Source: Parachlamydiales bacterium
GTDB lineage: Bacteria > Chlamydiota > Chlamydiia > Chlamydiales > JAJFMK01
Assembly: GCA_963765145.1 (NCBI GenBank)
Contig: CAVXVG010000005.1
Span: 4,007 to 68,006 of the forward strand
DNA: 64,000 nt
Direction of reading: 5' to 3'
Below, one piece after another: positions 4,485 to 60,750 of the stretch (positions are counted from its first letter, which is position 1; each line of letters starts with the position of its first letter). The notes beneath the pieces are model-generated. The model worked only from the letters and a program-made list of their open reading frames with translations. It had not been told where the DNA came from and searched no databases. The position numbers were made by a program, and so were the translations under genes.

Positions 4485-4491
4485 GGTGATC

Positions 4492-6243: not shown

Positions 6244-6292
6244 ATATTCTATTTTATAGACATTCTATTTAAAAATAAATTGATTTTTACTT

Positions 6293-6563: not shown

Positions 6564-6573
6564 TGGGGTGGGG

Positions 6574-7533: not shown

Positions 7534-7550
7534 AAATAAATGTTAAGATT

Positions 7551-31685: not shown

Positions 31686-34600
31686 ATGAGTACAGTTGGC
31701 GGCGGCAATGCAAGCTATGGTGATATTGAGAATTTTTATGGGCAATGGAAGGCCAACTTGTCTACAGATATGAAAGAACAGGCGGCTTTCGCAGCTTTAA
31801 GCGACGATGATAAAACCATTGTTTTATTAGCATTTAAGTCTCTGTCAAAGAGAAACATTGAAGGCAATTTAGGGACTATTAGATCCGATACATCGGAGCC
31901 TGAAACTGATGCCCCTGATAATATCTCCTTACATTCCATTGAGAGTATTGGAACTGATGGTAGCTCTATGTATTCCTACGCAAGTGGTGATAGTAATGAC
32001 AGTGATTATAGTGATGATGATGGCCCTTTTTACAGGTTGCTTTCCTTTGTAGCTGACGATGGAGATGATAGCTCCCTCACCTCAAATGATAGCTCTGTAG
32101 ATTTTGGCCACACAGGCAACATTGTAACGAAGGAAGATTTGGATGGCGTTCTAAGTAAGTTGAAAAGTAATAAGCGTTTAAATTTTGAAAATCGTAAAGA
32201 AGTCTCTCGAGACATCACCAAGGCTGTCGACCAGAGTTACAGAAATATCATGCGGGTTGCAGGACACCTTCCCACAGACAGTGAGAGGAAATATGCAGCT
32301 GGCTATACAGAAGCAAAATTTAAAAGTATTTACAAACAGCGGGCCGCCTTGCAGGAGGCGTTTGAAGGCGATTTTGTAGGTCAGATGATGGAGGGGATTG
32401 ATGTCCCCACTGAAGGTCTACTTTCTTCTAAACCTCTCTATGACAATTTAAAAGCTTGGGCAGAGAAGAACATTAAGAGTGGAGATTTTCAAAAAGCTGC
32501 GCTCAAAATTATTAAAGACTTGAAGGAGCACGAAACCGAATTTACGAAGGGAAAAGTTCAAGATAGTAATTTGCGAAATCAAGTTGAGGTATTTAAGGAT
32601 AGGCTCACCTTGGCTTTTATCGAATTAAACCCGCAACTAACACCAGAAGATATTAAAAAACTAAATCGGTTCGGTTTGAAAGGAACAAGCCAGCAACAGG
32701 TGATACGAGATTGTTTTATCGATTTAGGGAAAGTCTTTATTTGGCCCCTCCAAAAAGCCTTTGAGGTGCTTAAACCGGGTGAAGTGAGGGACGAAGCGGT
32801 ATCTGCCATTCGGTCCGGGTTTATGAAGCTGATTATTGACCCCGATAAAGGAAATCGGTTGATTGCGACCTTTAAGGAGATATTTACCCAGATTACAAAA
32901 GCCCCATTAGAGTCGATGGGGGCAGTGGGTCGTATGAAAGGGCCTTTCGCCGCGATTGCTAATAGGCCTGAAAACGTCGTGTTTCAAGAAATCAATAAGT
33001 TGGAGGCCCAGGTAGTCGAAGAGCGGGCAGAGATAGATAAAGTGATTAATGACGGGCTGACACTGGAAGGAGGCATTCCGGAAGCGCAAAGAGAGACCCT
33101 TTTAGAAAAGATCGCGGTTTACCATGAAAACTGCCAGTTATTGCTGGCTATGATGGAGCTAAAGGAAAGCCTTTTTGTAAAAGGGTACGTTCTTCTTCCC
33201 CACTTGGCAGCTGGTCACGGTAAGGAGATACACGCTCAAGCAAATGTCTTGATGAACCATGTAGCCTTTGCTGTCGATATGAGGGGTGTTCTAGAGCATG
33301 CCGATCAAGTCGCAGTCAGGATGGAAGAAAAAGGGATCAGCGCTCAAAATGCCTACTTATCTTTGGTCAAAGGCACTCCTCCGAAAGAGGGAGAGACCAT
33401 TGAGTTGTCTCAGGAAAGAGTAGAAGTTGAAGCCGAAGCTGCAGAAAAGTTGGAGAGGGCAGGCAATTGGTTGCAGTATGCCCGCTCGAGAGGAGATCTG
33501 TCTGCACCCATTTATTTGGCTGACTTGATTTGTACTTCAGATCGAAAAGCTTGGTCTCCGGAAAATGCCGATCGCACCTTTGCAACAGCGCAGATGTTGT
33601 TAAACGAGTCTTTCAAAGGGGGAGACTATGAACGTCGAGCAGATGCCGAGACAGCGATGAGATCTTTGCTCCGGCTCCGTTTTGAGGCTTCTGTTCGAAA
33701 TGATCGGCCTATGGCGGAGCAGACCTATAATGCCCATGAGCTCATCAAAGGGATGAAGTATGTCAACTCGGTCACCCGCTTCCCAACAACTGCAGCTAGA
33801 GAAACAGCTTTAAGAAATCAGCTGTTAGGTTTGGTTCTATTAGGCTCGCAAGAGGCCGGACAAGTTATTCTCGACCAAATTGACCAGCATGCCAAAAAAG
33901 GGCGTGTAACCGCAGGTGATGTTTTGGTGCTTTCAGAATTGGCAGCCGAGGGGTTTCCCGGCGCAAAAGAGAGGTTGCAAAATGTTACGCAAATGAAATC
34001 CTTTCTGGATAAGGTTGAAAAAGATGCTAAAAAAGAGATACTAACTTCTGAAGCCTTCAGAGCTTTAGCCAGTCTGGCAGCCCACGGAAATGTGAAGGCA
34101 AGATCTGTTCTTGGTGATCTTAATAAGGGAGACTCAGGCTTTCTTGGGGTATTTGGTCGTTCATATCCTCCAACAGAAGATGAAGATTTTTTGGATATGG
34201 CCATTTCCAACTGGGCGATGTCTATTGCCGCCGGGAGCTCATTAACACAAATTCCATCCATGCAATACGACCACGTGAAAGGCTTTAAAGAGTTTTATGA
34301 TCGGTATGCCCTGTCGCCTATCCAAATAGACTTCAACATTCCTCCTTTCAAGGGAGTAGAAGTAGACCTTGAAGCGATATCAGACCGGGCAGCTAAAGGG
34401 AAGCTAACTGAAAAAGATGTCAATAACTTGGTTTTAGCCATTGGCAGCGGAAATCGCGAGGCTATCCTCACCTTAGACGATGCTATCGTCAAGATGGCTG
34501 CTAGGCATAGTGAAATCCAAAAATCCAAAAATCCGAATGAAGTATTGAAATTTGCAAAGTGGGCTTTAGGGCAGGCCAAGAGCCCCGATGGTTTGCAGCG

Positions 34601-35375
34601 TCCTCTTGCAGATCAGGCTGACAATATCAAGGAAAGATACAATAAATTGTTCCCATCAGTGTTCGCGGAACAAATCCCAGCTCAACAGGTTCAACCAGAA
34701 GTTCCATCATCGGAAACGGAAGCTGAAACGATTAGCCAAGGATCGATCGACGATAGTCTTTTGGATTCAGATTTAAACGATTTTGGACCTCCTCAAGCAC
34801 CTATGGAGCCTTTTTCGTTGCAACAGACTCTGATTGCAGCAATTGAACGTGTAAATGAAAAAGTAGAGATAGAGGTAGAGAGCGAGTATGAGGTTGCCCC
34901 AGCTGCAGCTACCGCGTCCCCAGCCGCAACTGTTACTGAAGTTCCTCCCCTGTCAGACACTGAATTTTTGTTTAAAAAAATGAACGAGGGGGGGCAAGTG
35001 GAAAGCGAAGCATTTTTCACTGAGATGGGGCGTCGTTTTGAAAGAGGAGTCGTTTCTTGGGTGGATTTAAAATTCCTAACGAACTCTCTTCTAAGCAGTG
35101 AGAATAAAGTTAAGGCAGATAACCTTTTAAGAATAATTGCAAATGCAAAAACAGAAGGAACCGACGACTACGCAGCCATTGCGAATTTAAACATGGGTGA
35201 AAAATGGGCTGCCGATGTGTTGTTAAATGAAATCAATACATCGCTTAAGCCTCCCTCAGATCCCTTGGGGGAAAACTCATTGTTATCAGGTCAGCCTAAG
35301 GCTATCTCTACCTTCAAGATAAATTGGCAGTTTTGGAAAAAGAGTTCGAAAGGCACACAGGGAGAATCTCTATGA
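31686..35375 (+). CDS. Large hypothetical protein (1229 aa) with acidic Ser/Asp/Tyr-rich N-region and Sel1-like motifs
   Basis: No signal peptide. SYASGDSNDSDYSDDDGPFY tract. AA..G...A...L motifs (LAAEGFPGAKERL, LAAHGNVKARSVLGDL, IGSGNREAILTL). SD-like aggggag upstream. Confidence 0.6.
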   Translation: MSTVGGGNASYGDIENFYGQWKANLSTDMKEQAAFAALSDDDKTIVLLAFKSLSKRNIEGNLGTIRSDTSEPETDAPDNISLHSIESIGTDGSSMYSYASGDSNDSDYSDDDGPFYRLLSFVADDGDDSSLTSNDSSVDFGHTGNIVTKEDLDGVLSKLKSNKRLNFENRKEVSRDITKAVDQSYRNIMRVAGHLPTDSERKYAAGYTEAKFKSIYKQRAALQEAFEGDFVGQMMEGIDVPTEGLLSSKPLYDNLKAWAEKNIKSGDFQKAALKIIKDLKEHETEFTKGKVQDSNLRNQVEVFKDRLTLAFIELNPQLTPEDIKKLNRFGLKGTSQQQVIRDCFIDLGKVFIWPLQKAFEVLKPGEVRDEAVSAIRSGFMKLIIDPDKGNRLIATFKEIFTQITKAPLESMGAVGRMKGPFAAIANRPENVVFQEINKLEAQVVEERAEIDKVINDGLTLEGGIPEAQRETLLEKIAVYHENCQLLLAMMELKESLFVKGYVLLPHLAAGHGKEIHAQANVLMNHVAFAVDMRGVLEHADQVAVRMEEKGISAQNAYLSLVKGTPPKEGETIELSQERVEVEAEAAEKLERAGNWLQYARSRGDLSAPIYLADLICTSDRKAWSPENADRTFATAQMLLNESFKGGDYERRADAETAMRSLLRLRFEASVRNDRPMAEQTYNAHELIKGMKYVNSVTRFPTTAARETALRNQLLGLVLLGSQEAGQVILDQIDQHAKKGRVTAGDVLVLSELAAEGFPGAKERLQNVTQMKSFLDKVEKDAKKEILTSEAFRALASLAAHGNVKARSVLGDLNKGDSGFLGVFGRSYPPTEDEDFLDMAISNWAMSIAAGSSLTQIPSMQYDHVKGFKEFYDRYALSPIQIDFNIPPFKGVEVDLEAISDRAAKGKLTEKDVNNLVLAIGSGNREAILTLDDAIVKMAARHSEIQKSKNPNEVLKFAKWALGQAKSPDGLQRPLADQADNIKERYNKLFPSVFAEQIPAQQVQPEVPSSETEAETISQGSIDDSLLDSDLNDFGPPQAPMEPFSLQQTLIAAIERVNEKVEIEVESEYEVAPAAATASPAATVTEVPPLSDTEFLFKKMNEGGQVESEAFFTEMGRRFERGVVSWVDLKFLTNSLLSSENKVKADNLLRIIANAKTEGTDDYAAIANLNMGEKWAADVLLNEINTSLKPPSDPLGENSLLSGQPKAISTFKINWQFWKKSSKGTQGESL

Positions 35376-37909
35376 CAACACGTTCAGGTGATTTAAGTTT
35401 TGGGCAAGCTCGCGATGTCTATTCTGCATTTTATACTGCAGGCCATGCAGATGGAAAATCGGAAGCGAAAGTGTTTGGAGAGCTGTCGCTAGATGAGCGT
35501 AAGGTGATTGTCCGTGCCATCGAAGTGTTAGGAGGAAGAAAAGGTACCGCCGGAAGTTCTCTTGTGTCAGACGATCGATTAACACCTCTAATTAAAAAAT
35601 TAGGAGGCGATAACGTGACGACCATTGATGATAAAGACTTACCAAATGCTCTAAAAGGTAGTAAACCCATCCTTGTCCAAGGGCGGGCTGAAATAGGGAT
35701 GGCCAACCGCTTCTTAGTACACGATAAATTTTTAAAAGCTCTTGAGCCAGACGGAGAACTTTATCAAAAGCTTGAAGGGTTTTTTAATAATCCTCACGCA
35801 TCGCAAAAAACATTGGTGAACAGGGCCGTAAAAGAATGGGTGGAGAATTTACCTCCCGGAGAAGGGAAAGCGGCGGCTAAAGAAGCTTTGCAATACCTAG
35901 AAGCAAGTATCAACAATTTTTCTTCTGCGCATGGCTTTACCCCAGAGAATTTAAAGAAGGTCATTGGCGATTTTAGAGAAAATATTCACAAAGAACTTGT
36001 GCTTGCATGGGGTGCAACACCTTTAACAAAAGCAGACCATCAAGCGATGGGGATTGGCGCTTTGGATCTGCTGCCATTTTCTATCAACAAAACCACCATC
36101 AAACAAAAACGGGCAGAGTTTGAGAGCATTGTTGACGATCTTAGGGATCCTAAGAAAAGCAAGGAAGGGCTTGAGGAAAGGCTGTCGCAACTTGAGGGCG
36201 AGCTGTTGCCAATGGTCCGCTATCCGGAATGTGCCGGTCTTTATTCACGTGTTGTAGGTGAGCATGTAAATCTCTTAAGAGAAAGCAGGGATCCAGAGGT
36301 TGAAGATCGGGCGATTGAGCTTACGAAAATTCAGTATATTTATGCCATGTACGCCGCTGCAAAGGGAAATGGAGAGGGGGCGTATAGCTTTGCTAGAGGG
36401 TTTGTCGAGTTTGGGTTGTGGACTAAAGATGAGAGGGAAAATACCCTAAAAGAGGGTTTGCGTTTAGTTGACTTAGCCATTAATGCGGCCAAGAAAAGCG
36501 GAGATAAAGGGTTGCTCGCGAAAGCCAATGTTCTAAGAGCTGTTCTTTTAGAAAAAAATTACCTGACTTTACTTGAGCTAAGAAATGAGTTTGAGGAACC
36601 GAGAAGTGTAAAAAAAGCGGAAAAATATGTCATAGACAACTTTGTTAAATTGGGTTTTGATGGCATTGAGGGGCTTTATATTTTGTTTGTCAGGGGTGGA
36701 TCTTCTGCCGACCCGATGATCGACCTGCTGAAGAGGTTCCTGGTAGGCCCATTCAAGGTAAAGCCAACAGCAGAACATGTTAAGTGGATCACCACCGCAG
36801 CCTTAGCCGGCAATGAGAAGGCTATAAAGCTTTTAACCAAGCTTGTTGAACTTTATCCTGCAGAAACCAAAAAAGTTCCTGCCCTTATCCCGGCCGCGCT
36901 GTTAGTAAAGGATGGGGTCCATACCAATGCAAACGTTAGTGAATTTACACGAATAGACGCTTTGAAATGTTACCAAGAGGCCTTTGACCATTTGGCAAAC
37001 GAACTTAGGGAATTAAAGAATTCCGGACAGTTAAATCGAGCTACACTTGATGCGATTTTGCCAAGATTAGAGGTATTACGTGGCAAGTATGAGGCGCTTC
37101 TTAGGCAATTCCCGGATAAGACTCTTACACAGTCAGCAATGCAGTTAAGAAAGGACATAAACACTGCAATCGAAGAAATCAAAGAGGCTGAAGTTGGAGT
37201 TTTGGAGGAAGCGCCAGTCCCGGGCATAGCTAAGCACATGGACTTAGGCTCGCCAAAAGTTGCTCCATCTCGTAATAGGTTTTTCAGTGCCGTCAGCAAG
37301 TTTTTTAATGAATGGGTCATGCCCAAGTCTGAAATTCTGAAGTTCAGGGAACCTGCAGGAAGCCCTGAGCCGATAGATCCCCAGTTGACAGCTGCCGATT
37401 TTCATAAGTCGAAAGATGAAGATTTAACGAAAACCGAACCCTCTTTGTTAACTACCACCATCTACGACATCGATGCCCTAGAAATAAGTGATTCATTCAT
37501 CGACCGCATAGGTGGTTCTTTAACTCCAATTCCTGCGCCAGCTAAAAAAGCAGCTCCTGTGATTTCAGCGGTTGAAGTCGGTGACGAAGCTACTCAAGGT
37601 GTCGTCAATGTGTTTGGGGAATTTTGGGATGCAGCAGATGGAAAAGTTCACTTGAAAGGATTTCTTTCCATGGCAGGGCAAGACGAATTTGATAAGGGGA
37701 ATTTTAATCAAAAGCAAATAGAAGCTGCAAAGAAGACCGAGTTCATGGCTCAAATAGCCAAATTAAAAGAGCTGGGTGAAAAAGAACAACCTATCGCTAT
37801 TCGGTTGATGGCCGATAAAATGGGCAATGCCAAATATGTTAATTCCCTAACCAAGCTTATTGAAGATGATAGATTTGAAGCAGTCCAAAAACTCCTTTCC
37901 GCTCAGTAA
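35372..37909 (+). CDS. Large hypothetical protein (845 aa), paralogous N-terminus to the upstream gene
   Basis: ATG at 35372 forms an ATGA overlap with the upstream stop. FGELSLDERKVIVRAIEVL compares with AALSDDDKTIVLLAFKSL in the upstream protein. Sel1-like AALAGNEKAIKLLTKL. Confidence 0.6.
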   Translation: MTTRSGDLSFGQARDVYSAFYTAGHADGKSEAKVFGELSLDERKVIVRAIEVLGGRKGTAGSSLVSDDRLTPLIKKLGGDNVTTIDDKDLPNALKGSKPILVQGRAEIGMANRFLVHDKFLKALEPDGELYQKLEGFFNNPHASQKTLVNRAVKEWVENLPPGEGKAAAKEALQYLEASINNFSSAHGFTPENLKKVIGDFRENIHKELVLAWGATPLTKADHQAMGIGALDLLPFSINKTTIKQKRAEFESIVDDLRDPKKSKEGLEERLSQLEGELLPMVRYPECAGLYSRVVGEHVNLLRESRDPEVEDRAIELTKIQYIYAMYAAAKGNGEGAYSFARGFVEFGLWTKDERENTLKEGLRLVDLAINAAKKSGDKGLLAKANVLRAVLLEKNYLTLLELRNEFEEPRSVKKAEKYVIDNFVKLGFDGIEGLYILFVRGGSSADPMIDLLKRFLVGPFKVKPTAEHVKWITTAALAGNEKAIKLLTKLVELYPAETKKVPALIPAALLVKDGVHTNANVSEFTRIDALKCYQEAFDHLANELRELKNSGQLNRATLDAILPRLEVLRGKYEALLRQFPDKTLTQSAMQLRKDINTAIEEIKEAEVGVLEEAPVPGIAKHMDLGSPKVAPSRNRFFSAVSKFFNEWVMPKSEILKFREPAGSPEPIDPQLTAADFHKSKDEDLTKTEPSLLTTTIYDIDALEISDSFIDRIGGSLTPIPAPAKKAAPVISAVEVGDEATQGVVNVFGEFWDAADGKVHLKGFLSMAGQDEFDKGNFNQKQIEAAKKTEFMAQIAKLKELGEKEQPIAIRLMADKMGNAKYVNSLTKLIEDDRFEAVQKLLSAQ

Positions 37910-40025: not shown

Positions 40026-41435
40026 TTAATCTGGAAATAAGGCGAGGACTAGATGTCTTTTATCCAAAGTCGTCGGAAGTGGTAGCAGATTAATATCAGT
40101 TTTAATGTAGTAGAGTTCTTTTAGTCGTTTATAAAGCATGTTGATGAATTGTCTTAAGAGATAAAATTCCGGCATGAACATCTGATATTGGCGAATGGCT
40201 AACTGGGCGCTAGTGATCTGATCAATAGACTTAATCTGTTTCAATTTCTCTAATAGCTGAGGAAGCTTTTCTTTTGAAAACCGATAAGGGATGTCGGCAA
40301 AGGATTCATCCATCATTTGGTGAAAGGGAAACTTGAGAAACTTTTCTAGGCGGACTTCCAAATCTTTAGCGAAACTTAAAAACAGTTGATAACACTCTTT
40401 GTAAACTTTTGCGTGTTGAGTCATTTTATGTTCAACTTGATCTTGAATCGTTTCAATTCCATCAACACAATCATCCACCGGATAGAGATCGCCTAAAAGG
40501 TGGCTTACAGTTTTCTCAAAGTCGTCATTGAGTTCAAAGTCCATAAAAAAGTTTCCTTGTCGAAAAGCATTCAAAATCTCAATCACCCCCTTCCAGTCTT
40601 GCCCAAAGTGAGGTGGGCTGCGCAGAATGGGAGCGATAAAAGCTGGCAATAATGGCTCTATTTGGATTAAGCAATTGCGAAAAAGTACTGTCTTAGTTAT
40701 TTCAGAACTATTTTGGAGCCCGGGAATTACTGAACGGATTGCAATAATTGCTTGGAGTATTCTATTCCAGGTAGGGGCTGTTTTTGGCAATTTGCCGATG
40801 ATAACTTGCAATTCTTTTTGTTTTTTTAATTCATAGTTTTTTTTGTTTTTTACCTGTGTTGCTATGAGTATCCCTGCTGCGGCAAAATGGTCAAGCGCAG
40901 TCATCAAGCTTCTTTTAGAGTATCCTATTTCAACGAGGTCGGCGGCTGAAAAATACTTCCCTTTTCGTGCGAGAAAGTGTGTCAAGATGTCAGCTTTTGC
41001 CCCAGGGCCAAATAAGCTTCGTGTTCGAAGCGCTAGAAGGGAGGGAGATTCAAGCGGCGGAAGCAAAGATTTTCCGCTCAAGTGAACTTTAAATTGAACT
41101 GTCTCTTCTGCGCTCGGCCACTTTGCTGATGATATCGAATTTAAAGCTGCAGCAAATTGTGAGAAAGAGCGCATTGCATCATTATTCAATCCTTTTAGAA
41201 GCGCGCGTAGCCGACTGACCGAAACATACTCATGGTAGCGAGAGAGCCAATCTAAGGCTTCATCGCGTAGGCGAGGGTCATATTCTGAGACAACTGTAGT
41301 CAAAATAATCAACTCTTCTGGTGGGATTAGGCAGTTCTCGTGAAAGCGGTCGATTCCGGCTACCCCCAATTCTTTCCACAAGCTCCATGCAAGTCCAGCA
41401 AGCAGGTGATCAAACTCTTCCTTCATTTCCACCAT
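40026..41435 (-). CDS. Hypothetical 469-aa protein with central winged-helix-like segment
   Basis: ADILTHFLARKGKYFSAADLVEIGYSKRSLMTALDHFAAAGILIATQ looks like a wHTH. Its start lies 1 nt after the stop of the upstream nucleotidyltransferase gene. Confidence 0.55.
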   Translation of the reverse strand: MVEMKEEFDHLLAGLAWSLWKELGVAGIDRFHENCLIPPEELIILTTVVSEYDPRLRDEALDWLSRYHEYVSVSRLRALLKGLNNDAMRSFSQFAAALNSISSAKWPSAEETVQFKVHLSGKSLLPPLESPSLLALRTRSLFGPGAKADILTHFLARKGKYFSAADLVEIGYSKRSLMTALDHFAAAGILIATQVKNKKNYELKKQKELQVIIGKLPKTAPTWNRILQAIIAIRSVIPGLQNSSEITKTVLFRNCLIQIEPLLPAFIAPILRSPPHFGQDWKGVIEILNAFRQGNFFMDFELNDDFEKTVSHLLGDLYPVDDCVDGIETIQDQVEHKMTQHAKVYKECYQLFLSFAKDLEVRLEKFLKFPFHQMMDESFADIPYRFSKEKLPQLLEKLKQIKSIDQITSAQLAIRQYQMFMPEFYLLRQFINMLYKRLKELYYIKTDINLLPLPTTLDKRHLVLALFPD

Positions 41436-47383: not shown

Positions 47384-48478
47384 TTAGTAGGTAAATGATG
47401 CGGAAAGGACAAGACCTTGGAAAGAAAGGTCATTGCTGGATTGGTTGGCATTAGGTGATACAACAACTTGGCCGAGAGAAAAATTGGCAAAATTCACTTG
47501 TCTGAAATATTGATGGAGTTCCCAACCGGCTTTCAGTTGCAATAACCCGTTGCCGTTTTCATACATAAAATGGTTCCATTGCACACCAAAAGCTAGATCC
47601 ATGATGGTGCGGACGACGTTTGGCCTATATGTACTTTCTACAGTAATAAGTGATGTGAAATTTAGTACGTTTGTTCCCGCCCCGGAAAGAGAGGATTTAT
47701 TTTTACCATATAGCAGGGCTGTGGAAAAATCTCCGTATAGCCCAAGGCCGCACATCATGTCCCAGGTAGAGGAAAGGCCTGCCACAATTCCAATTCCCTT
47801 AAATTCATTCCTTAACTTTGCGGTAATGGTAGCGGTATTTGAAATAATGGAGCCGTCGGTTGTAAAGATTTGGTTAAAAGAGGAAGTTTTTTGATTTAAG
47901 AAAAGGGCTCGTAATCCACCATAGGGTTTTAATGTGACCTTATGGCCGACATAAAATTCCCTATTGATGACAAGATCCGCTTGCTCTAATTCCACTTGCC
48001 AGTGGGCCTTTAAACTGGAATCGGAAACAGCTGTAAAATTAGTTGAGTTGACATAGGGAGATGCGACCAGTGTTGTTGTAGTCGTCGTATTTGCTAATGC
48101 CGTGGAGTAGAAGAAATCGTGCAAGTAGTGAGTCCAATTGAACGCGACTCTCCATTCATTGCAAGGCCATCCTGCATCTACGCCTACTCTAAAGCCCGCT
48201 TTGTATTCATACTTGTAATCTTGCAAGCTCACAAAGATCGCCTCAGATAAGACATCGCCCGCTAGTCTTGCTGGCGAATTGATCGTAATGGCAGCGGGAT
48301 TTCCTTCTGCATGCGGTTGCCAGTAAAGGAAATCAAAATGGCCTCCCCAAACACAGCATTCATTTGAGATTAAAGGAGGGTTGACTGCGTAGGTGTAGCA
48401 GTTCGGATCATCCAAAGCCATACAGCAAGGACCAGCAAAAAGAGTGATGGGGGCTAAAAGAGATAGAAATTTTTTCAT
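47384..48478 (-). CDS. Cysteine-rich beta-barrel outer membrane protein, family member 1
   Basis: Signal peptide. N-terminal CC..DP.CY.YAVNPP...CC.WGG.FDFLYW, WTHYLH, and a C-terminal FQGLVLSASFTY. Confidence 0.7.
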   Translation of the reverse strand: MKKFLSLLAPITLFAGPCCMALDDPNCYTYAVNPPLISNECCVWGGHFDFLYWQPHAEGNPAAITINSPARLAGDVLSEAIFVSLQDYKYEYKAGFRVGVDAGWPCNEWRVAFNWTHYLHDFFYSTALANTTTTTTLVASPYVNSTNFTAVSDSSLKAHWQVELEQADLVINREFYVGHKVTLKPYGGLRALFLNQKTSSFNQIFTTDGSIISNTATITAKLRNEFKGIGIVAGLSSTWDMMCGLGLYGDFSTALLYGKNKSSLSGAGTNVLNFTSLITVESTYRPNVVRTIMDLAFGVQWNHFMYENGNGLLQLKAGWELHQYFRQVNFANFSLGQVVVSPNANQSSNDLSFQGLVLSASFTY

Positions 48479-48485
48479 TATAGGC

Positions 48486-49577
48486 CTAATGGTTAAAGGT
48501 TGCGGATAGAACGAGTCCCTGGAAAGCTATGTTACTGGCCGGCTTTTTGAAGCTGCCACCCACAAACATCTGGTCTTCGCTCAAATTCATAAGAGTGTTT
48601 TGGTTAAAATAAAGGTGTTCTTCCCAACCGGCCCTTAAGCAGACGACACTTCCATTGGCTAAGTTGGAACTTTTCCACTGAAGGCCAAGGGCAAAATCGA
48701 ACGCATATTTGACCGTATTGAGGTCGTGAGAAAAATGGGCGTTTATAAAAGTTAAGTTTTGGCCTAATTCAAGGCCGGTATTGGTTAGTTGGCCTTGTAG
48801 GGTTGACCGACTTTTTCCGTAAAAAATGGAACATTTCATATCGGTGTATAAGCTGCATTGGCAGAGAAAGTCCCAAGTAGAGAAAAATCCTCCCACCAAA
48901 CCTACCCCTTTAAAATCGGTTGAGGCTTTAAGGTTTGTGGTAGAAGTATTGAATGACTGCCCAACGGGCGCACCGTGGATGGTGTTAGAGGCTTCGACTT
49001 TTTGTTTTAACAAAAAGGCCCTCAAGCCTCCATAGGGACAAAAAGTTACTTGATGTCCAAAGTAAAATTTCCGATTCAATACAAGGTCAAGCACCTCTAG
49101 TTGCGTGCGCAAAGAAGAATCGACGAATGAATCCGAGTATAAAACATCATTGTCTTGAGGCGTAAAAAATCCAATGTTTAGGTAAGAGGATAGGGCAACC
49201 TGATTTCCGGTAGCTGAAACAGATCCCTGATTGTGGTGAAGGTAGTGGGTCCAATCTAAAGACACATTCCACTCGTCGCAGGGTAATCCTGCATCAATAC
49301 CTATACGAAATCCGGCTAGATAGTCATATGCATACTCTTTTGTTATGAAAGAAAACGGGCCGCTGGTTGTGGAGGATTTTGCATTAGAATCATTTTTCAC
49401 CACATAGGCAAACGGGTTTTCATCTTCTGAAATTTGTAAATAGAGAAAATCGAAATGACCTCCCCAATTGCAGGTTTCACGTGAAATGGGTGGAGGGTTG
49501 ACCCCAAAGGGATAGTTACAGCCGGTATCTGCTAGCAATAGGGTAGGGACTAAAAAAGTAAGGAAACCTTTTTTCAT
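48486..49577 (-). CDS. Cysteine-rich beta-barrel outer membrane protein, family member 2
   Basis: Paralog (GVNPPPISRETCNWGGHFDFLYLQ, WTHYLH, FQGLVLSATFNH). Start taken at ATG 49575-49577. Confidence 0.7.
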   Translation of the reverse strand: MKKGFLTFLVPTLLLADTGCNYPFGVNPPPISRETCNWGGHFDFLYLQISEDENPFAYVVKNDSNAKSSTTSGPFSFITKEYAYDYLAGFRIGIDAGLPCDEWNVSLDWTHYLHHNQGSVSATGNQVALSSYLNIGFFTPQDNDVLYSDSFVDSSLRTQLEVLDLVLNRKFYFGHQVTFCPYGGLRAFLLKQKVEASNTIHGAPVGQSFNTSTTNLKASTDFKGVGLVGGFFSTWDFLCQCSLYTDMKCSIFYGKSRSTLQGQLTNTGLELGQNLTFINAHFSHDLNTVKYAFDFALGLQWKSSNLANGSVVCLRAGWEEHLYFNQNTLMNLSEDQMFVGGSFKKPASNIAFQGLVLSATFNH

Positions 49578-49579
49578 GA

Positions 49580-50695
49580 TCAATAAGTCAAACTAGCAGA
49601 GACAACAAGTCCTTGCAAGGTTATATCACCTGCAGGTTTGCTCAAATTAACATTGAAGAGGGCCTGATCAAATGACAAGCTAGGTAAGGTGTTTTGGCGG
49701 AAGTAAATTTGTTGTTCCCATCCTGCACGCAGGGTCAGTATAGCCCTCTGTTGGCAAAAAGATTCTCTCCATTGCAAGCCAAAAGAAAGGTCTAGTAAGG
49801 CTTTAATTTGATTGCGGTTTTGGGTCACATTGGCCGTAAAGCCGGTTGTAGGTGCATTTGTTAAAGTTGGAGTCGTTGCATTGCCTGTCAGGTTAGATTT
49901 GTTTTTCCCATAAAGGGCAGAGGCTGAAATATCCCCATAAAAACTTAAGTTGCACAAAAACTCCCAAGAAGAAAATAGGCCAGCCTCTATCCCAACACCT
50001 TTAAAATCGGATGAGGATGTGGCAAGGCTTGTTTGGGTGGCTAAAGGTTCTCCGCCTATGAAGCTTGCGATAGTATTGGTTGTATGGACTTTTTGTTTCA
50101 AAAGGAGGATTTGCAATCCGCCATATGGCATGAGGGTCACTTGGTGGCCAATATAAAATTCTCTGCTGCATACCAGATCAATGAGGTCTAATTGGATTTT
50201 CCAGTTAGCATTGACGCTGGTTTGACCAAAAGTAACACCTGCATCAATGAACGAAAAGGTTCCGAAATTAAAATAACTACCTAAGGCAACTGTTAGCGGG
50301 TCATTCGTGAAGATAGATCCGTGGTTAGTATGGAGATAATGGGTCCAATCTGCATTTAGTCTCCATTCGTTTTGAGGTAGGCCAACGGCTATTCCTAACC
50401 TAAAGCCCCCCTCGTAATCGTAGTTAAAATCTTTAAGAGTTAAGGAATAATTCCCGTTTGGCGAAGGTGCTCTTGTCGTAACGCTGTTTGAGATACTTGC
50501 AGCAAACTCATTGTTTTCAACAGAAGGTCTCCAATAAAGAAAGTCTAAACGTCCTCCCCATATCCAACAAGGGTTGCAACAAATAGGTGGGTTAACAGCG
50601 TAAGGATAACAATGTGGTTCTTGCAGCCTTTCACAACAAGGATCTGCCAAGAGGGGAGAGATTGCAGCGAGGAGAACAGGCAAAGTTATTTTCAT
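49580..50695 (-). CDS. Cysteine-rich beta-barrel outer membrane protein, family member 3
   Basis: Paralog (DPCCERLQEPHCYPYAVNPPICCNPCWIWGGRLDFLYW, WTHYLH, LQGLVVSASLTY). Confidence 0.7.
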   Translation of the reverse strand: MKITLPVLLAAISPLLADPCCERLQEPHCYPYAVNPPICCNPCWIWGGRLDFLYWRPSVENNEFAASISNSVTTRAPSPNGNYSLTLKDFNYDYEGGFRLGIAVGLPQNEWRLNADWTHYLHTNHGSIFTNDPLTVALGSYFNFGTFSFIDAGVTFGQTSVNANWKIQLDLIDLVCSREFYIGHQVTLMPYGGLQILLLKQKVHTTNTIASFIGGEPLATQTSLATSSSDFKGVGIEAGLFSSWEFLCNLSFYGDISASALYGKNKSNLTGNATTPTLTNAPTTGFTANVTQNRNQIKALLDLSFGLQWRESFCQQRAILTLRAGWEQQIYFRQNTLPSLSFDQALFNVNLSKPAGDITLQGLVVSASLTY

Positions 50696-52730: not shown

Positions 52731-53940
52731 CTAGTATTGGAATAAGGCCGAGATGACTAAGCCTTGAAAGGAAACATCGGTTAACCGTTGTGTTACAGTA
52801 GATTTAGCAACCCCGGTTTCTTGATAGTGCACATCCATTTCAATGAAGGTGTTTTGACGGAAAAGGAGGTGCTCTTCCCATCCGGCTCTAACGGCAAAGT
52901 TATTTGCCCCCCTGAATAGCTCTCCTGACCATTCAATTCCAAAGGCCAAATCTAAAGTGGCTTTTAGGTTGTTAACCCTTCTATCTGCAAAATAATTAAC
53001 AACGTTTGGGCCGGCTATCACCCCTATGGCAGCTGGAGGAACGATCGAATTTAATGATCCTTTTAAATTCGATCTGCTATTTCCATATAGAATAGATGAG
53101 GAAATGTCTCCATAAAATCCTAAGTTACAAACAACATCCCAAGTGGTTTCAAGGCCCGCCTCTATTCCAACGCCCTTAAAGTCTGAGCATAAATCAGCAG
53201 TCATGTTGGTCGCTACGATGCTTTTCTCAGCTCCGGCTGTGAATAAGTAAGATGTACTTGCGCTAGAGTGAAGGGTTTGTTTTAAGAACATTGCCTTTAA
53301 GCCGGCGTAGGGGGCTAAGAGTGACTTTATGCCCTACATAAAATTGCCTTTGGAAAAGAAGGTCGAGTGTATTGTAGTCGACTCTCCATTGTCCATTAGC
53401 GCTGGAATCAAAGAGCAGAGAGGATGCAAAGGAGTCACTTGTAAGCGCTGAATAGAAGGAGGGGTCTTGTAAGTAACTTAATGTTGCAACCTGCATGGTG
53501 CCGGGAACTGAGGCAGAGTTGCTATTTGAACCTCCTGCACTTGCATAAGCTTTTGGACTGTGATGTAAATAGTGTGTCCAATCTAAGCTAAGGCGCCATT
53601 CGTTGCATGGATAACCTACATCTACACCTACGCGAAAACCGGCTTGCCAATCATACTTCACATCAGCTTGGGTCACTGAAAATTCATCAGATCGAAAAAA
53701 GGAGCGAGTTCCGAATGATCCAAAAGCGCCGCTATTTAATACTGTGGCAAAGGAGTTATTATCCGAATAGGGTCTCCAATACAGGAAGTCGATTCGCCCA
53801 CCAAAATTGCAGCAAGAAGCTGCGCTGATTGGAGGGTTAACCGCGTAAGGGTAACAAAGCGGGTCTTCAAGCGGCATGCAGCAAGTGCTTGCTAAAAGCG
53901 GTGTAGAGGCTAACAATGCCAATGGCAAAATTTTAAGCAT
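52731..53940 (-). pseudogene. Frameshifted member of the cysteine-rich OMP family
   Basis: ORFs 53263..53940 and 52731..53291 together align along the whole of the 53971..55191 paralog. The frame is lost at 53310-53314, where a C5 run on the coding strand corresponds to C4 in the paralog. Confidence 0.8.
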
Positions 53941-53970
53941 AAGATTCCTTTTTGTCTAAGATTGGCATTT

Positions 53971-55191
53971 TTAATATTGAAATAAGGCTGTAATAACCAG
54001 GCCTTGAAAGGAAACATCTGTCATCCGTTGCTTTACATTGGAAGTAGCAACGCCGAGACTTTCGTAATTCACATCCATTTCGATGAAGGTGTTTTGACGG
54101 AAAAGAAGGTGCTCTTCCCATCCGGCTCTAACGGCAAAGTTGCTTGCCCCGCTGAATAGCTCTCCTGACCACTCAATTCCAAAGGCCAAATCTAAAGTGG
54201 CTTTTAGGTCGTTAACTCTTCTTTCTGCAAAATAATTAACAATATAAGGAGTGGCCAACAGTGTATCGCTCGGAGGAACATTGGAATTTAATGATCCTGT
54301 TAACTTCGATTTGCTATTTCCATAGAGTATAGATGTTGAGATGTCACCATAAAACCCTAAATTACAAATAACATCCCAATTGGTTTCAAGGCCTATCTCC
54401 ACTCCAACACCTTTAAAATCGGAGCATAGATCGGCATTCATGTTGGTTGCTACGCTATGTATAGTAGCTAGGTCTACAACAGAAAATTGATAAGATGTTT
54501 CTGCATAAGAGCGAAGGTTTTGTTTTAAGAACAAAGCCTTTAAGCCTGCATAAGGGGCTAAAGTAACTTTATGTCCCACATAAAATTGCCTTTGGAAGAG
54601 AAGGTCCAGTGTATTGTAGTCGACCTTCCATTGGCCAACAGCATTGGAAGCAAAATTCATGGCAGGAGTTGTGAAAGCACTCGAAAGAGGTGCATAGAAA
54701 GAGGGATCTTGTAAGTAACTTAAGATGACAACCCGGTTTGGGGGGATTGCGGTAAGGGTGTTAAGGAATTGGCTGCCTGCATTTCCAGCGTTTACATAAG
54801 TCTTTGGTGTGTGATGCAAATAGTGTGTCCAATCTAAGCTAACGCGCCATTCGTTGCATGGATAGCCCACATCTACACCTACACGAAAACCGGCTTGCCA
54901 ATCATATTTCAGATCAACTTGGGTCACTGATAATTCGTTAGAGCGGAAAAAGCCGGCTCCTTCGAATGTTCCAAAAGCGCCGTTATTTATCACAGTTGCA
55001 AAAGAGTTGTCGTCTGAATAAGGCCTCCAATACAAAAAATCGACCCTTCCGCCAAAATTACAACAAGGGGATGAGCTCACAGGAGGATTTACCGCATAAG
55101 TGTAGCAATTGGGGTCTTCAAGAGGCATGCAGCAAGTGTTTGCTAACAGCGGTGTAGAGGCTAAAAGCGCCAAAGGGAAAGTTTTAAGCAT
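53971..55191 (-). CDS. Cysteine-rich beta-barrel outer membrane protein, family member 5
   Basis: Start taken at MLKTFPLALLASTPLLANTCC, by analogy with the pseudogene start. CCMPLEDPNCYTYAVNPP, WTHYLH, FQGLVITALFQY. Confidence 0.7.
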   Translation of the reverse strand: MLKTFPLALLASTPLLANTCCMPLEDPNCYTYAVNPPVSSSPCCNFGGRVDFLYWRPYSDDNSFATVINNGAFGTFEGAGFFRSNELSVTQVDLKYDWQAGFRVGVDVGYPCNEWRVSLDWTHYLHHTPKTYVNAGNAGSQFLNTLTAIPPNRVVILSYLQDPSFYAPLSSAFTTPAMNFASNAVGQWKVDYNTLDLLFQRQFYVGHKVTLAPYAGLKALFLKQNLRSYAETSYQFSVVDLATIHSVATNMNADLCSDFKGVGVEIGLETNWDVICNLGFYGDISTSILYGNSKSKLTGSLNSNVPPSDTLLATPYIVNYFAERRVNDLKATLDLAFGIEWSGELFSGASNFAVRAGWEEHLLFRQNTFIEMDVNYESLGVATSNVKQRMTDVSFQGLVITALFQY

Positions 55192-55347
55192 AGGGTTTCT
55201 GATTTCCAAATCTTAGAAAAATTCAATATGATGGAATGGCAGATTAAAAAACTAGCAATTCCCGTTGGAAGACAGTGCAGCACCCCGAATGGGTACCCAC
55301 ATCAATTTCCTATAAATTTAATAGGATGAATAGGAGCTTGATTATTC

Positions 55348-57236: not shown

Positions 57237-58676
57237 ATGATTTCCGGTCGGCTTTTAGCCTTCCTTATTTACTTCGCCATCCTATTGACGATTGGTTTGG
57301 TTTCAAGACGTCGGATGAAAAATGACGCCGATTTCGTCATGGGAAACCGGAAGGTTAACTTCTGGTTAACGGCATTATCTGCCCAATCAAGTGACATGAG
57401 CGCTTGGTTATTTATGGGTTTTCCCGGCATCGTTTTTGCTCGTGGAATGCCGGAAGCTTGGATAGCCTTAGGGCTTGTGGGTGGGATGTTCGCCAACTGG
57501 AAGCTTGTGGCTCCAAGACTGCGTCGTATGACTGAAAGCTACGACAGCTACACACTGTCTACCTTCTTTGAAAGACGCTTCAACGATCATTCGGGTATTA
57601 TCCGTGTTTTGACAGGTCTTTTAGCCCTTCTTTTCTTAACGGCCTATCTTACAGCTCTTGTGATTGCAATGGGCAAAGTTGTCTCGTCCCTATTCCCAAT
57701 CTCTTATGCAGCCGGCATCTTGATTTCGATGCCGATTCTGATTTTCTATGTTTTCATCGGTGGTTTTTTGACAGTTGCATGGATGGACTGTTTCCAAGCC
57801 ATTTTTCTTATTTGCGTTGTTTTGTTTGTCCCTTACATTGCCTACGATGCGATTGGTGGTGCAGCTGCCATTGCACACGTTGCCGCTGCAAAACATATCT
57901 CTATTTCCCTCTTTCACCAAGATTGGATGTTGATGCTGCCCGCTCTTTTATACGGGTTGGGATGGGGAATGGGCTATTTTGGCCAGCCCCATATCATCAC
58001 AAAATTCATGGGGGTTACATCTCCAAACGATCTTAAAAAATCGATGATTTTGGGGATGAGTTGGCAGATTGTGGCTTTAAGCGCCGCTGTTTTTATTGGT
58101 TTGATCGGGATTGCCTATTTCCCTGATGGGCTTTACAACCATGAAATGGTCTTTGTCGAAATGGTGAAGATCCTTTTCAACCCATTTGTTGCCTCATTCT
58201 TGTTGTGCGCTGTCATTGCTGCCAATATGTCGACGATGGATTCGATGGTGCTGGTTGCAGGTTCCATTTTCTCTGAAGACATAGTTCGCAAAATGACAAA
58301 GAAGCCGCTTGGCCCTAAAGCGCTTTTGGTCATGGCGCGCATTGGCGTCGTTTTGTTCCCATTGATTGCGATGATCATTGCGTTCTTTTATGAAAATGGG
58401 CTTATTTTGGATATGGTTGGATATGCTTGGGCAGGTCTTGGCGCTACATTTGGCCCCATCGTTTTTGCAGCCCTTTATTCAAAAGTGATCAACAAGTATG
58501 GTGTGATTAGTGGGGTAGCAGTAGGAGGAGCCGTTGCGGCGACATGGCCCTTATACGGTTTATATTTAATACCCATACCATTATTGCCTATAATTCCAGG
58601 CTTCATTGCTTCTTCGGTTGTGATGTATGTGGTTTCGTTTCTAACTCGCCAAAAGGAGCATGAACATGTGTCCTAA
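57237..58676 (+). CDS. Sodium:solute symporter family transporter (PutP/PanF-like)
   Basis: About 13 TM segments with an SSS-family layout. Substrate not assignable from sequence alone. Confidence 0.75.
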   Translation: MISGRLLAFLIYFAILLTIGLVSRRRMKNDADFVMGNRKVNFWLTALSAQSSDMSAWLFMGFPGIVFARGMPEAWIALGLVGGMFANWKLVAPRLRRMTESYDSYTLSTFFERRFNDHSGIIRVLTGLLALLFLTAYLTALVIAMGKVVSSLFPISYAAGILISMPILIFYVFIGGFLTVAWMDCFQAIFLICVVLFVPYIAYDAIGGAAAIAHVAAAKHISISLFHQDWMLMLPALLYGLGWGMGYFGQPHIITKFMGVTSPNDLKKSMILGMSWQIVALSAAVFIGLIGIAYFPDGLYNHEMVFVEMVKILFNPFVASFLLCAVIAANMSTMDSMVLVAGSIFSEDIVRKMTKKPLGPKALLVMARIGVVLFPLIAMIIAFFYENGLILDMVGYAWAGLGATFGPIVFAALYSKVINKYGVISGVAVGGAVAATWPLYGLYLIPIPLLPIIPGFIASSVVMYVVSFLTRQKEHEHVS

Positions 58677-58881
58677 AATGGATGAAAAAGCACTTTTAGA
58701 ACTGTTTGCCTCCTTTGTTCACGAACATGAAAAAGAAGATCAAAACACTAAAGCTGAAGAGCTTAAAAACAAAATCCGCAAAAAGATGGACCCATTCTCT
58801 GCCCGCTTTGCCTCCGGCGCCCAAGAATTATTGAAGTCGTTAGAAGCTACATCCGCCACATAGCTGCACATCTCTGCTTCT

Positions 58882-59805
58882 CTAAATTTCGTTGAAACAT
58901 ACGGACGGATCCCACTCTTCTGCAAGAGGAGGAGGGCTTGGGGGCAAGATCTCTCCATAATAATCCATTTCATTGTCTATCGCAGGAGATTGTAGATTAG
59001 ATGGATATGTGTTCTCTTGGTCTGAAGGTAAGTGTTCATACGGTGAGGTAACTAGGTCTTCGAGAGTATTTGACGGTACTCTTGGAAGAGGGTTTGCTAG
59101 GGAAGAGGGAATGGCGGTGTGCTTTTTTTGCAAATCATCCATTATTGGAAGGCAGATTTTGGAGATTTTTTGAGTATCGCTATTAGGATTCCTATGAGAC
59201 TTTTTTTTGGAAGTGTTGCGGTGATGGGGGCGTGTTTTGGCTTGCGCTCTTAGTATTCTTTGGTAACATGCATCACAGATTTTAGCAGTCGTATCTTTAG
59301 GGTTGGAATGCCAGCGGTGAGTGTTAGCAGTGCGTGAGCAGGTGGAACACGCCACTTTGGGTTGGGCTCTCCTTATTCTTTCATAGCATGTGTGACAGAC
59401 TTTAGCAGTCCTATCTTGAGGGTTGGGACGCCAGTAGCGAGAGTGTGTGTTTGAGCAGTTGGAACACGCTTCAGGCTTCGGTAGAAATTTAGGCCCACGT
59501 TTATTAGGAGCTTTAGCCAACGAAACGGGCTGTTTACTTTCGCTACTATTTTGAACCGGATTTTCGTGAAGAGGTCGCGGTTGATCTTTAGTAACTTCAA
59601 CATGTGAAATAGTTGGTTTACCACGACGTTCTGCGAATGTTTTAGCGTCAAAAACTTTTACAACAATGTTTGCACTTCTTTGTGCAACGGACTGATGACT
59701 TTCGGCACTTGCTGTATTTCTGTATTTTGGTGGAAGTCGAAATTCGTCTGAGATCGCAGGAAATTTGAAACTAATTTTGCTGCCAAATGTTGTGTTTAAT
59801 AACAT
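58882..59805 (-). CDS. Protein with two tandem GATA-like C4 zinc fingers
   Basis: CSNCSNTHSRYWRPNPQDRTAKVCHTCYERIRR and CSTCSRTANTHRWHSNPKDTTAKICDACYQRILR (residues about 114-180, nt 59266-59466). Basic tract after finger 2. AT-rich flanks. Confidence 0.6.
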   Translation of the reverse strand: MLLNTTFGSKISFKFPAISDEFRLPPKYRNTASAESHQSVAQRSANIVVKVFDAKTFAERRGKPTISHVEVTKDQPRPLHENPVQNSSESKQPVSLAKAPNKRGPKFLPKPEACSNCSNTHSRYWRPNPQDRTAKVCHTCYERIRRAQPKVACSTCSRTANTHRWHSNPKDTTAKICDACYQRILRAQAKTRPHHRNTSKKKSHRNPNSDTQKISKICLPIMDDLQKKHTAIPSSLANPLPRVPSNTLEDLVTSPYEHLPSDQENTYPSNLQSPAIDNEMDYYGEILPPSPPPLAEEWDPSVCFNEI

Positions 59806-59886
59806 GAAAATACCTAAACAAATAATGTTATATTATTTTACTGTTTTTTTGTGATATTTTCTATTAAATATTGTTGAAATATTAAT

Positions 59887-60750
59887 TTATCTGCGGACTG
59901 TCCACCAAACTTTGATGGTGGAGGGGAGAAGGGCTTTTCCTGCAACTTCAGTTTCTAATAATAATAAGATCGTGGCGTAGGCATCGGCCTCTTCTGCAGT
60001 TGGAGCTAAGACCGAAACGCTAGTAACATGTCCTGACTTTTGTTCTAAAAATCTTCTTTCAAGTGGGTTATAAAGATGAAAGAAGGTTTTTTCTTCTTCT
60101 TTCCAAAATTGTTGGTAGTCACCACTTGTGGCAAGCCCCCCCTCCCAAACATCGAGAATTTCATCTTGCCCATAGAGAGCAATTCTCCAGGGGGCTTCTT
60201 CCTTGCTTTTGGTTGAAAAGGCAAAATCACCCCCCCATTCTACCAAGACCGATGGAAACCCAAGTTGATTCATGGCTTTCAGCAGGGTGTCAATGGTAGT
60301 TCCTTTGGCAATTCCACCAAGGTCAAGTGTGAGTGGCAGCGTCTTGATGATAGCATCAGCTTCAAAGTGTAAAGTATTCCATCCGTCGGTTTTTAATGAG
60401 GGGTCAAAAATCCCTTTAGATAGTTTTACAAAGGCATCAGTCCTTTGTAAAAGGGATAACAAGGATGGAGAGGGGTGGAAAGGAACATTTGCCGGCCAAC
60501 TATTTAAAGCAGAAAGCTCTGAATCGGGGTTGAATTTGTTAAAAACCCGATGAGTTTCAAGGAAAATAGCCTCGATTCTATCTTCAATGGTTTGCTTTTC
60601 TTCTTCCGACAATTGTTTTCTGATCGCAACCTGGTAGGGCATGGTCATGGCAATGCCGGTAAAAACCACTTTGGGTTCAGGAAGCGTTTCCTGGCAGCCC
60701 GGAATGAGCAGTAAAAGGCTTAAGAAGTGTGATAGACAAAGCTTTTCCAT
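59887..60750 (-). CDS. apbE: FAD:protein FMN transferase (ApbE family lipoprotein)
   Basis: Lipobox LLLIPGC. MTMPYQV, DLGGIAKG, ATSGDY and HLYNP. Confidence 0.85.
   Translation of the reverse strand: MEKLCLSHFLSLLLLIPGCQETLPEPKVVFTGIAMTMPYQVAIRKQLSEEEKQTIEDRIEAIFLETHRVFNKFNPDSELSALNSWPANVPFHPSPSLLSLLQRTDAFVKLSKGIFDPSLKTDGWNTLHFEADAIIKTLPLTLDLGGIAKGTTIDTLLKAMNQLGFPSVLVEWGGDFAFSTKSKEEAPWRIALYGQDEILDVWEGGLATSGDYQQFWKEEEKTFFHLYNPLERRFLEQKSGHVTSVSVLAPTAEEADAYATILLLLETEVAGKALLPSTIKVWWTVRR

Follow-up and report, generated by a model that had tools for sequence, protein, structure and literature searches.

Organization of the finger gene locus

The window analysed here is the whole of a 64,000 nucleotide stretch of contig CAVXVG010000005.1, from a Parachlamydiales bacterium (assembly GCA_963765145.1), and our subject is a gene within it that encodes a 307 amino acid (aa) protein with two tandem GATA-like zinc fingers. 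A reading of the sequence alone had singled out this gene as encoding a candidate nucleomodulin, with GATA-type fingers acquired horizontally and a product secreted to target host chromatin or transcription. The open reading frame (ORF) starts with ATG, and the features of the locus are as follows.

58882..59805, minus strand: coding sequence of the 307-aa tandem GATA-like zinc-finger protein (ORF list and translation)
59470..59805, minus strand: N-terminal region, aa 1-112, basic, Pro/Ser-rich and predicted to be disordered (AlphaFold2 predicted local distance difference test score, pLDDT, <50)
59362..59466, minus strand: finger 1 and then a basic helix, aa 114-148 (44.2 bits with the finger-unit model; AlphaFold2)
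59242..59349, minus strand: finger 2 and then a basic helix, aa 153-188 (36.2 bits with the finger-unit model; duplicate of finger 1)
59116..59241, minus strand: degenerate third finger, aa 189-230, aligning column for column with finger 3 of the relative P0002
58885..58974, minus strand: acidic-hydrophobic C-terminal tail, aa 278-307, with seven D/E, no K/R and nine F/W/Y/L/I/M
59806..59886, minus strand: AT-rich upstream spacer of 81 bp, GC 0.15, with one sigma-70-like hexamer pair, nearly invariant between lineages
58830..59880, no strand: block with 97-100% nucleotide identity to the metagenome contig L001, its flanks having 85-96% (sliding-window identity)

The two fingers have the patterns C114-x2-C117-x19-C137-x2-C140 (CSNCSNTHSRYWRPNPQDRTAKVCHTCYERIRR) and C153-x2-C156-x20-C177-x2-C180 (CSTCSRTANTHRWHSNPKDTTAKICDACYQRILR), which bears out the tandem arrangement and the spacing of 19-20 residues between knuckles given in the sequence-only reading, as well as the basic tail it placed after each finger (ERIRRAQ after finger 1 and QRILRAQ after finger 2). 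The whole finger region has a net charge of +10. The proposed duplication at the DNA level is also real, and its coordinates were approximately right: positions 59236-59324 are 78% identical to 59356-59444 over 89 nt, and a second pair of segments, 59330-59352 and 59447-59469, is 87% identical, with a spacing of 120 or 117 nt and a 3-nt register shift between the segments. A KKKSHR tract had been described as following the fingers; it is present at aa 200-205 (59191-59208) but lies inside the degenerate third finger and not in a free tail. This third finger keeps one of its four Cys residues, its sequence HRNPNSDTQKISKIC resembles WHSNPKDTTAKIC, and in the full-length AlphaFold2 model aa 189-230 form a finger-like strand-strand-helix, predicted at low confidence. 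In a six-frame scan of the window with a finger-unit hidden Markov model (HMM), built from family units with finger 1 of the window protein among them, the finger ORF was the only match (E=2.7e-20).

Outside the fingers the termini are rich in Pro and Ser, as had been noted (these residues make up 21% of the N-terminal and 26% of the C-terminal part), and the absence of a signal peptide agrees with the lack of any Sec-type hydrophobic N-terminus, the peak 12-aa Kyte-Doolittle hydropathy within the first 40 aa being 0.65. The first ~17 residues, MLLNTTFGSKISFKFP, are kept in an alignment with the divergent ortholog P0058 (MLLxTTF..FKFP), and the N-terminal region of aa 1-112 is a candidate secretion signal. 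The end motif EEWDPSVCFNEI is also common to P0058, and EW(D/N)PSxCxN is kept at the C-terminus between the window protein and a divergent ortholog; we infer a similarity of the C-terminal tail to acidic activation domains or to short motifs for host binding. As for the AT-rich spacers said to enclose the gene, the description fits the upstream side, whereas the downstream spacer is 18 bp long with a GC of 0.50. Promoter-like hexamers in the upstream spacer are not more frequent than in shuffled sequence and were set aside.

The fingers as a divergent GATA subtype

The GATA finger is a characteristic domain of transcription factors in eukaryotes. In a Pfam scan the GATA profile (PF00320) gives 14.0 bits for the whole window protein, 18.6 for the double-finger fragment and 17.6 and 14.5 for the fingers in isolation, all below the cut-off of 26.8 bits. 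Two other profiles score slightly higher while likewise staying under their cut-offs, namely DUF7573 (PF24458; 21.5 bits for the whole protein and 26.2 for the double-finger fragment, cut-off 30.2) and FYVE (PF01363; 19.3 and 26.4 bits respectively, cut-off 27.8). An NCBIfam scan of the window protein gave nothing, and its own best sequence match in the PDB is plant GATA18 at E=0.11.

When 1.84 billion representative proteins were searched exhaustively with phmmer, a family of 59 members emerged, the window protein included, of which 38 match PF00320 (E<=0.01, each scanned singly; best 8e-19), compared with 13 that match DUF7573 and six that match FYVE. The members on bacterial contigs that exceed the 26.8-bit GATA cut-off are P0004 (67.4 bits), P0067 (66.8), P0002 (38.1), P0009 (30.4), P0018 (29.0) and P0014 (28.2), and P0003 also exceeds it (48.2). 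A profile (A3) was also built from 30 double-finger segments and compared with every sequence in the PDB. The DNA-binding double finger of GATA3 ranked first (4hc7, E=4e-6) and GATA1 second (3vd6, 4e-5), followed by GATA18, GATA2, GATA4 and AreA, with multihaem cytochromes and similar proteins as the non-GATA matches, obtained via CxxC(H) composition.

Structure prediction gives a concordant picture. AlphaFold2, run on aa 110-191 with the A3 alignment, returned a model with a mean pLDDT of 88.5 in which each finger consists of strands and then a helix. In a Foldseek search of the PDB the top five matches to this predicted model are DNA-bound GATA1/GATA3 double fingers (probability 0.91-0.99), with E-values that are weak, as expected for 35-residue domains, and with LIM and PHD-like domains as weaker matches. 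Single fingers of the model superpose on GATA4, AreA, chicken GATA1 and AtGATA18 with 1.2-2.3 Å over 35-38 residues. Against viral structures there are weak matches only, one of them to a Marseillevirus 'GATA zinc finger protein'. Because of the family Pfam matches, the ranking of the A3 search and these superpositions, we regard the fingers as GATA-type in predicted fold and, through their relatives, in homology; the sequence-only reading was right on this point for fold and family, although the window protein itself misses the Pfam cut-off.

The fingers are at the same time divergent. The Trp follows the second Cys by seven residues in finger 1 and by eight in finger 2, the second knuckles are CHTC and CDAC, with CN[AS]C nowhere in the window protein, and the cores read SRYWRP in finger 1 and THRWHS in finger 2 compared with TPLWRR. 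The T/W(R/H) core that had been described as kept is therefore kept in part: W is found in both fingers and R in finger 1, whereas T-P-L-W-R-R and CNAC are lost. The CNAC knuckle and the T-x-L-W-R-R core are positions that contact DNA in GATA1/GATA3 complexes, and because these canonical contact residues are replaced, binding to WGATAR is not to be assumed; the DNA sequence recognised is probably a different one. The fingers of the window protein and its family form a distinct GATA subtype.

A family of finger-array proteins

Every one of the 58 relatives (E<=1e-3; 14 reach E<=1e-10) aligns through aa ~112-187 of the window protein. The gene belongs to a family of tandem GATA-like (treble-clef, Cys4) proteins that lacks annotation and was found in Chlamydiota, with one Anaplasmataceae-labelled member. 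Functional annotation is absent for the window protein and its relatives in the databases queried, the few names being 'hypothetical protein'. A word-indexed homolog search with the window protein returned only a cluster with 95% identity (P0001), and none with the A3 alignment; an ortholog-alignment scan of GTDB species representatives found no relative, the genome and the family being absent from those searched, and a scan of viral contigs for the family found none.

Members carry between one and 12 recognisable fingers, and five divergent members are missed by a motif search. Among 166 family units the inter-knuckle spacing is x19 in 82, x20 in 26 and x18 in 24, and the unit consensus is CssCgtTkTsrWyKdPxDpTkdrCnaCYrkA. 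Two further properties recur beyond the fingers. A K[KR]x[KR] motif follows the last finger in 24 of 42 tails, as against 5.6±2.0 in composition-matched shuffles (0/1000 shuffles reach 24), and the last 30 residues are acidic and bulky-hydrophobic in 15 of 58 members compared with two of 43 window ORFs (p=0.006), examples being DLFLLKLTDEMFPGLDEFF, DFDLDSFFA and LPFDEDDSFLEEDWEP. Taken together, a non-globular N-terminus, a finger array, motifs resembling nuclear localization signals (NLS) and an acidic tail make up the layout of a eukaryotic transcription activator.

The repeats were compared in paralogs of P0002, the closest relative that is not an ortholog. Those at L095 748-2106 and L097 1398-2780 have six fingers and that at L096 299-1105 has four, with a 46-aa period. 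The repeat scaffold of the six-finger paralogs is almost invariant (KGTxCxxCxxTTxxxWYKNPQDPTxKICxxCYxRI), and variation between repeats falls at the three residues before W, the inner residues of the first knuckle, the first inner residue of the second knuckle and the helix after CxxCY. Sites of these four kinds are DNA-facing surfaces in GATA-DNA complexes. The same two paralogs carry a bipartite NLS-like motif, KRKK-x10-KRAK, plus an acidic tail. A transposase-like ORF adjoins the L095 paralog, and the L096 paralog looks truncated.

A link to an enzymatic domain is found in P0039, where a SET domain (40.8 bits, cut-off 22.4) comes after five family fingers; the best solved relatives of this domain are the Legionella nuclear effector LegAS4 and a homolog (5czy, 8sr6; E~8e-5). 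A suspected HNH nuclease domain in P0031, noticed by eye, has no Pfam support at E<=0.001 and was not used. The genomic contexts that could be obtained for relatives are bacterial, as follows.

P0002: upstream of a ClpB-type gene
P0028: between UvrD/RecD-type helicases and GlnA/HolA
P0039: on a chlamydial contig with a Dxs protein 69-76% identical to proteins of Simkania, Rhabdochlamydiaceae and a Chlamydiae metagenome-assembled genome (MAG)
P0067: in an Anaplasmataceae MAG (NCBI label), adjoining a second GATA-match paralog and an IS110 transposase

The contig L092, which bears an Anaplasmataceae MAG label, has neighbouring multi-finger GATA-match genes at 4255-5904 and 6001-7596 with an IS110-type transposase near them, and by this label the family is expanded outside Chlamydiota as well. 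A minority of matches is GC-rich and eukaryote-looking (P0003, P0042 and P0055-57; the GC of the L091 contig is 0.67). P0003 itself (L091 6001-7863) has nine fingers in 620 aa and contains polyglutamine tracts, with several DUF7477 genes beside it at 67% GC; its origin could be eukaryotic, viral or bacterial, and bears on the direction of horizontal transfer.

Evolution of the locus

The order FolD, ApbE, finger gene, small ORF and SSF transporter is kept in three lineages. Compared with the more distant lineage represented by L085, the finger protein is 36% identical and 50 aa shorter, in contrast to 88% protein identity for ApbE and 89% for the small ORF. With the nearer lineage represented by L001 the relation is reversed: the proportion of synonymous differences (pS) in the finger gene is 0.015, compared with 0.23-0.32 in its flanks, and the three synonymous differences seen compare with ~50 expected (binomial p=2e-21). 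The finger gene block common to the window and L001 thus indicates a recently shared allele, probably moved by recombination or exchange. A second block with 98-99% identity to L001, at 60030-60230 inside ApbE, a gene otherwise ~90% identical, suggests mosaic recombination between chlamydial lineages beyond the finger gene.

Of the 18 differences between the finger genes of the window and L001, 15 change an amino acid, giving a ratio of non-synonymous to synonymous change (omega) of ~1.4, which is incompatible with that of the neighbours (omega <=0.17; p=9e-5). Positive selection was considered and not adopted, as 1.4 is indistinguishable from 1 (p=0.41), and the claim is limited to relaxed or diversifying evolution relative to the neighbours. 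Nine population variants all encode 307 aa and keep every finger Cys and Trp. The gene is therefore maintained and yet evolves very fast, a pattern common among host-interaction proteins but not among core regulators.

Horizontal acquisition of the fingers from a eukaryote, as supposed at the outset, is plausible for the family. The base composition of the finger gene (GC 0.434, window 0.445) was examined for a recent foreign origin, which was not upheld, GC being equal to that of the genome and only GC at third codon positions (GC3) somewhat low (0.347 vs 0.41-0.49). Because of the genome-like GC together with the conserved synteny, any acquisition of this gene does not appear to be recent.

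The small ORF of 67 aa (58660-58863, plus strand) points towards the finger gene and extends into the terminal part of the SSF transporter gene. Its conservation in two other lineages is 89-95%, its pN/pS is 0.08 and it has no Pfam match; it is a real small gene.

Source organism and other genes of the window

The AlaRS of the window is 50-58% identical to that of Chlamydiota MAGs (Parachlamydiaceae, Simkania, Rhabdochlamydiaceae) and 42-46% identical to that of other phyla, while its best single match, at 61%, is labelled 'uncultured Verrucomicrobiae'. The window protein is identical to P0061, whose MAG contig also encodes exact AlaRS, transketolase and FolD matches. From the AlaRS affinity we assign the source to Chlamydiota, which accords with the intracellular bacterium of the sequence-only reading. 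Near-identical DNA was found in peat and soil metagenomes only.

All known chlamydiae are obligate intracellular bacteria with a type III secretion system (PMC9666466). A 496-aa protein encoded at 16587-18077 (minus strand) has a BTB/POZ domain at aa 344-442 (PF00651, 38.9 bits, cut-off 20.5). Among bacteria the BTB domain has been reported almost exclusively from Parachlamydiaceae, and proteins with it acted as type III substrates when assayed in a heterologous system (PMC4209131); this protein is a second candidate effector in the window. Six tandem Legionella_OMP (PF05150) paralogs lie at 47384-50695 and 52731-55209 (minus strand), among which the ORFs 52731-53291 and 53263-53940 match the C- and N-terminal halves of the profile respectively and look like one frameshift-split porin gene. 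Four large ORFs have no Pfam match at E<=1e-8 and may encode lineage-specific chlamydial proteins: 31686-35375 (plus strand, 1229 aa), 35324-37909 (plus strand, 861 aa), 4492-6243 (minus strand, 583 aa) and 40026-41435 (minus strand, 469 aa).

Proposed function and alternative explanations

On balance we favour the proposal that the window protein is a secreted, host-nucleus-directed effector whose GATA-like fingers would bind DNA or chromatin and whose acidic tail would engage host factors. In this model the protein would pass from the bacterium to the eukaryotic host cell, by type III secretion in the case of chlamydiae, with the disordered N-terminus and its conserved first ~17 residues acting as the export signal. 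At 34 kDa the protein would be small enough to enter the nucleus by diffusion, and it has basic clusters, while relatives have clear mono- or bipartite NLS-like motifs. The two intact fingers would then bind DNA or chromatin, and the acidic-hydrophobic C-terminal tail would recruit host factors in the fashion of an activation domain, with an effect on host transcription. The NLS-like motifs, acidic tails, SET fusion and very fast evolution lend indirect support to secretion and nuclear action.

Several observations pull in the other direction. Besides the Pfam scores of the window protein given above, in which GATA is below its cut-off and slightly outscored by DUF7573 and FYVE, the strict K[KR]x[KR] motif is absent from this member, which has KKKSHR only; secretion-system genes are absent among the scanned window ORFs, which include all those of >=250 aa; the finger gene is absent from the RNA-seq runs searched for it; and it has a genome-typical GC and sits among housekeeping genes in conserved synteny. 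The SET fusion of P0039 is also ambiguous as a pointer to a host target. Chlamydiae use the histone H1-like proteins Hc1 and Hc2 on their own chromosome, and the ambiguity arises because a chlamydial SET protein reportedly methylates Hc1/Hc2.

Some of these same observations would suit a protein that stays inside the bacterium, a domesticated eukaryote-like finger binding the chlamydial chromosome as a nucleoid-associated or developmental regulator analogous to Hc1/Hc2 and never secreted. The placement in FolD-ApbE-target-orf67-SSF in three lineages and the genome-typical GC fit such a role, the basic regions could simply be DNA-binding tails, and the SET fusion is compatible with it, given the reported methylation of Hc1/Hc2 mentioned above. 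However, hypervariability would be odd for a core regulator (36% identity vs 88% for a neighbour, omega near 1), the clustered NLS-like motifs and acidic-hydrophobic tails that recur among its relatives would serve no evident purpose within a bacterial cell, copy and finger numbers vary widely with paralogs beside insertion sequence (IS) elements, and the SET domain of P0039 is closest to that of a Legionella nuclear effector, LegAS4; we think this explanation unlikely, without being far-fetched. Somewhat less probable still, in our view, is a host-directed effector that uses its fingers for protein-protein contacts rather than for DNA, and might mimic host GATA factors by titrating their partners. 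In vertebrate GATA factors the N-finger contacts FOG, and treble clefs of the LIM type are likewise protein binders; replacement of the canonical DNA-contact residues (CHTC/CDAC; SRYWRP/THRWHS) and the presence of LIM and PHD-like domains among the weaker Foldseek matches would be in line with such contacts. Set against this are the basic helix and tail kept in both fingers, the net charge of +10 of the finger region, the DNA-bound state of the double GATA fingers that are the best structural matches, and the fusion to a histone-methyltransferase-type SET domain, which suggests chromatin targeting.

An origin unrelated to GATA, as a generic zinc ribbon (of the DUF7573, double zinc ribbon or DksA/TraR type, or like the FYVE C-terminal half) or as a spurious ORF with chance Cys spacing, draws on the scores of the query alone, where DUF7573 (21.5-26.2 bits) and FYVE (19.3-26.4) exceed GATA (14-18.6), all of them being below cut-off. 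We consider it very improbable and largely excluded: the family matches favour GATA (38, as against 13 for DUF7573 and six for FYVE), the match to FYVE is confined to positions 34-66 of its 67-position profile and the PI3P-binding motifs R[RK]HHCR and WxxD are absent, the DksA/TraR-type C4 finger, raised from the outset as an alternative, has no Pfam match at E<=10 with either the whole protein or the fingers, GATA comes out on top in the PDB profile search and again in the fold search, and the ORF is conserved and intact across many metagenomes. DUF7573, FYVE, DksA/TraR and, alongside them, the double zinc ribbon were rejected as better assignments, and membership of DUF7573 would in any case say nothing about function.

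A broader proposition, which we put forward tentatively and regard as possible at best, extends the effector proposal to the family. Environmental chlamydiae and at least one Anaplasmataceae lineage would deploy secreted activator-like effectors built of GATA-like finger arrays, in which the repeat-variable residues would read host DNA, the NLS would direct the protein to the nucleus and the acidic tail or SET domain would act on transcription or chromatin. Arrays of this kind would be a zinc-finger counterpart of the transcription activator-like (TAL) effectors of Xanthomonas, and the window gene would be a two-finger member with the relic of a further finger, engaged in an arms race with a protist host.

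Significance and comparison with known systems

The fold, effectors with eukaryote-like domains and nucleomodulins are already known as concepts; the novelty lies in a subtype of tandem x19 fingers and in a transcription-factor-like architecture in obligate intracellular bacteria. As its wider family is laid out like a transcription factor, the window protein is a credible candidate for action in the nucleus of the host. If the proposal is correct, the family would represent a new class of candidate nucleomodulins, an entry into how environmental chlamydiae reprogram their protist hosts, and possibly a new modular DNA-binding scaffold. The signature of the locus, a hypervariable near-neutral allele with conserved flanks that was recently shared between lineages, could also help to find other host-interaction genes in uncultured symbionts.

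The fingers share with those of eukaryotic GATA proteins (PF00320; GATA1/GATA3, AreA, plant GATA18) the predicted Cys4 treble clef, the C-x2-C-x7-W spacing of the first half (one residue longer in finger 2 of the window protein), the two short hairpins, helix and basic tail and the tandem arrangement, and it is these proteins that provide the best profile and fold matches. They differ in a spacing of x19/x20 instead of x17/x18, with a loop after W that is two residues longer (W-x-K-D/N-P-x-D-x-T), and in the CxxCY of the family, which replaces CNACGLY with the GL after the last Cys deleted. The family arrays moreover reach 12 units, and their carriers are obligate intracellular bacteria.

To our knowledge, very few bacterial effectors have a DNA-binding domain that is both of eukaryotic type and sequence-specific, the classic case being the TAL effectors. 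The family resembles these type III-secreted transcription activators of Xanthomonas in having a non-globular N-terminus, near-identical repeats with few hypervariable positions, NLS-like motifs and an acidic tail, and the likeness would extend to mode of action by inference. TAL repeats are 34-aa helical units, in contrast to the zinc fingers with a 39-46-aa period found here, and there is no sequence or fold relationship between the two; the window protein also has only two intact repeats, and its DNA binding is putative. With the SET nucleomodulins (Legionella LegAS4/RomA and chlamydial NUE) the connection is through P0039, whose joining of five fingers to a LegAS4-related SET domain links this finger type to chromatin-directed effectors, whereas the window protein has neither SET nor another catalytic domain. 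We know of no GATA-like fingers in LegAS4 or NUE.

The literature searched yielded nothing relevant on bacterial or chlamydial GATA-finger effectors, and GATA or zinc fingers are unmentioned in two papers on chlamydial eukaryotic-like domains (PMC4209131, PMC9666466). The closest parallel within environmental chlamydiae is with their F-box, BTB-box and RING/U-box effectors (PMC4209131), which like the present family combine a eukaryote-type domain with variable copy number and a birth-and-death style of evolution, although their architecture is of the ubiquitination type and that of the finger proteins is of the transcription-factor type.

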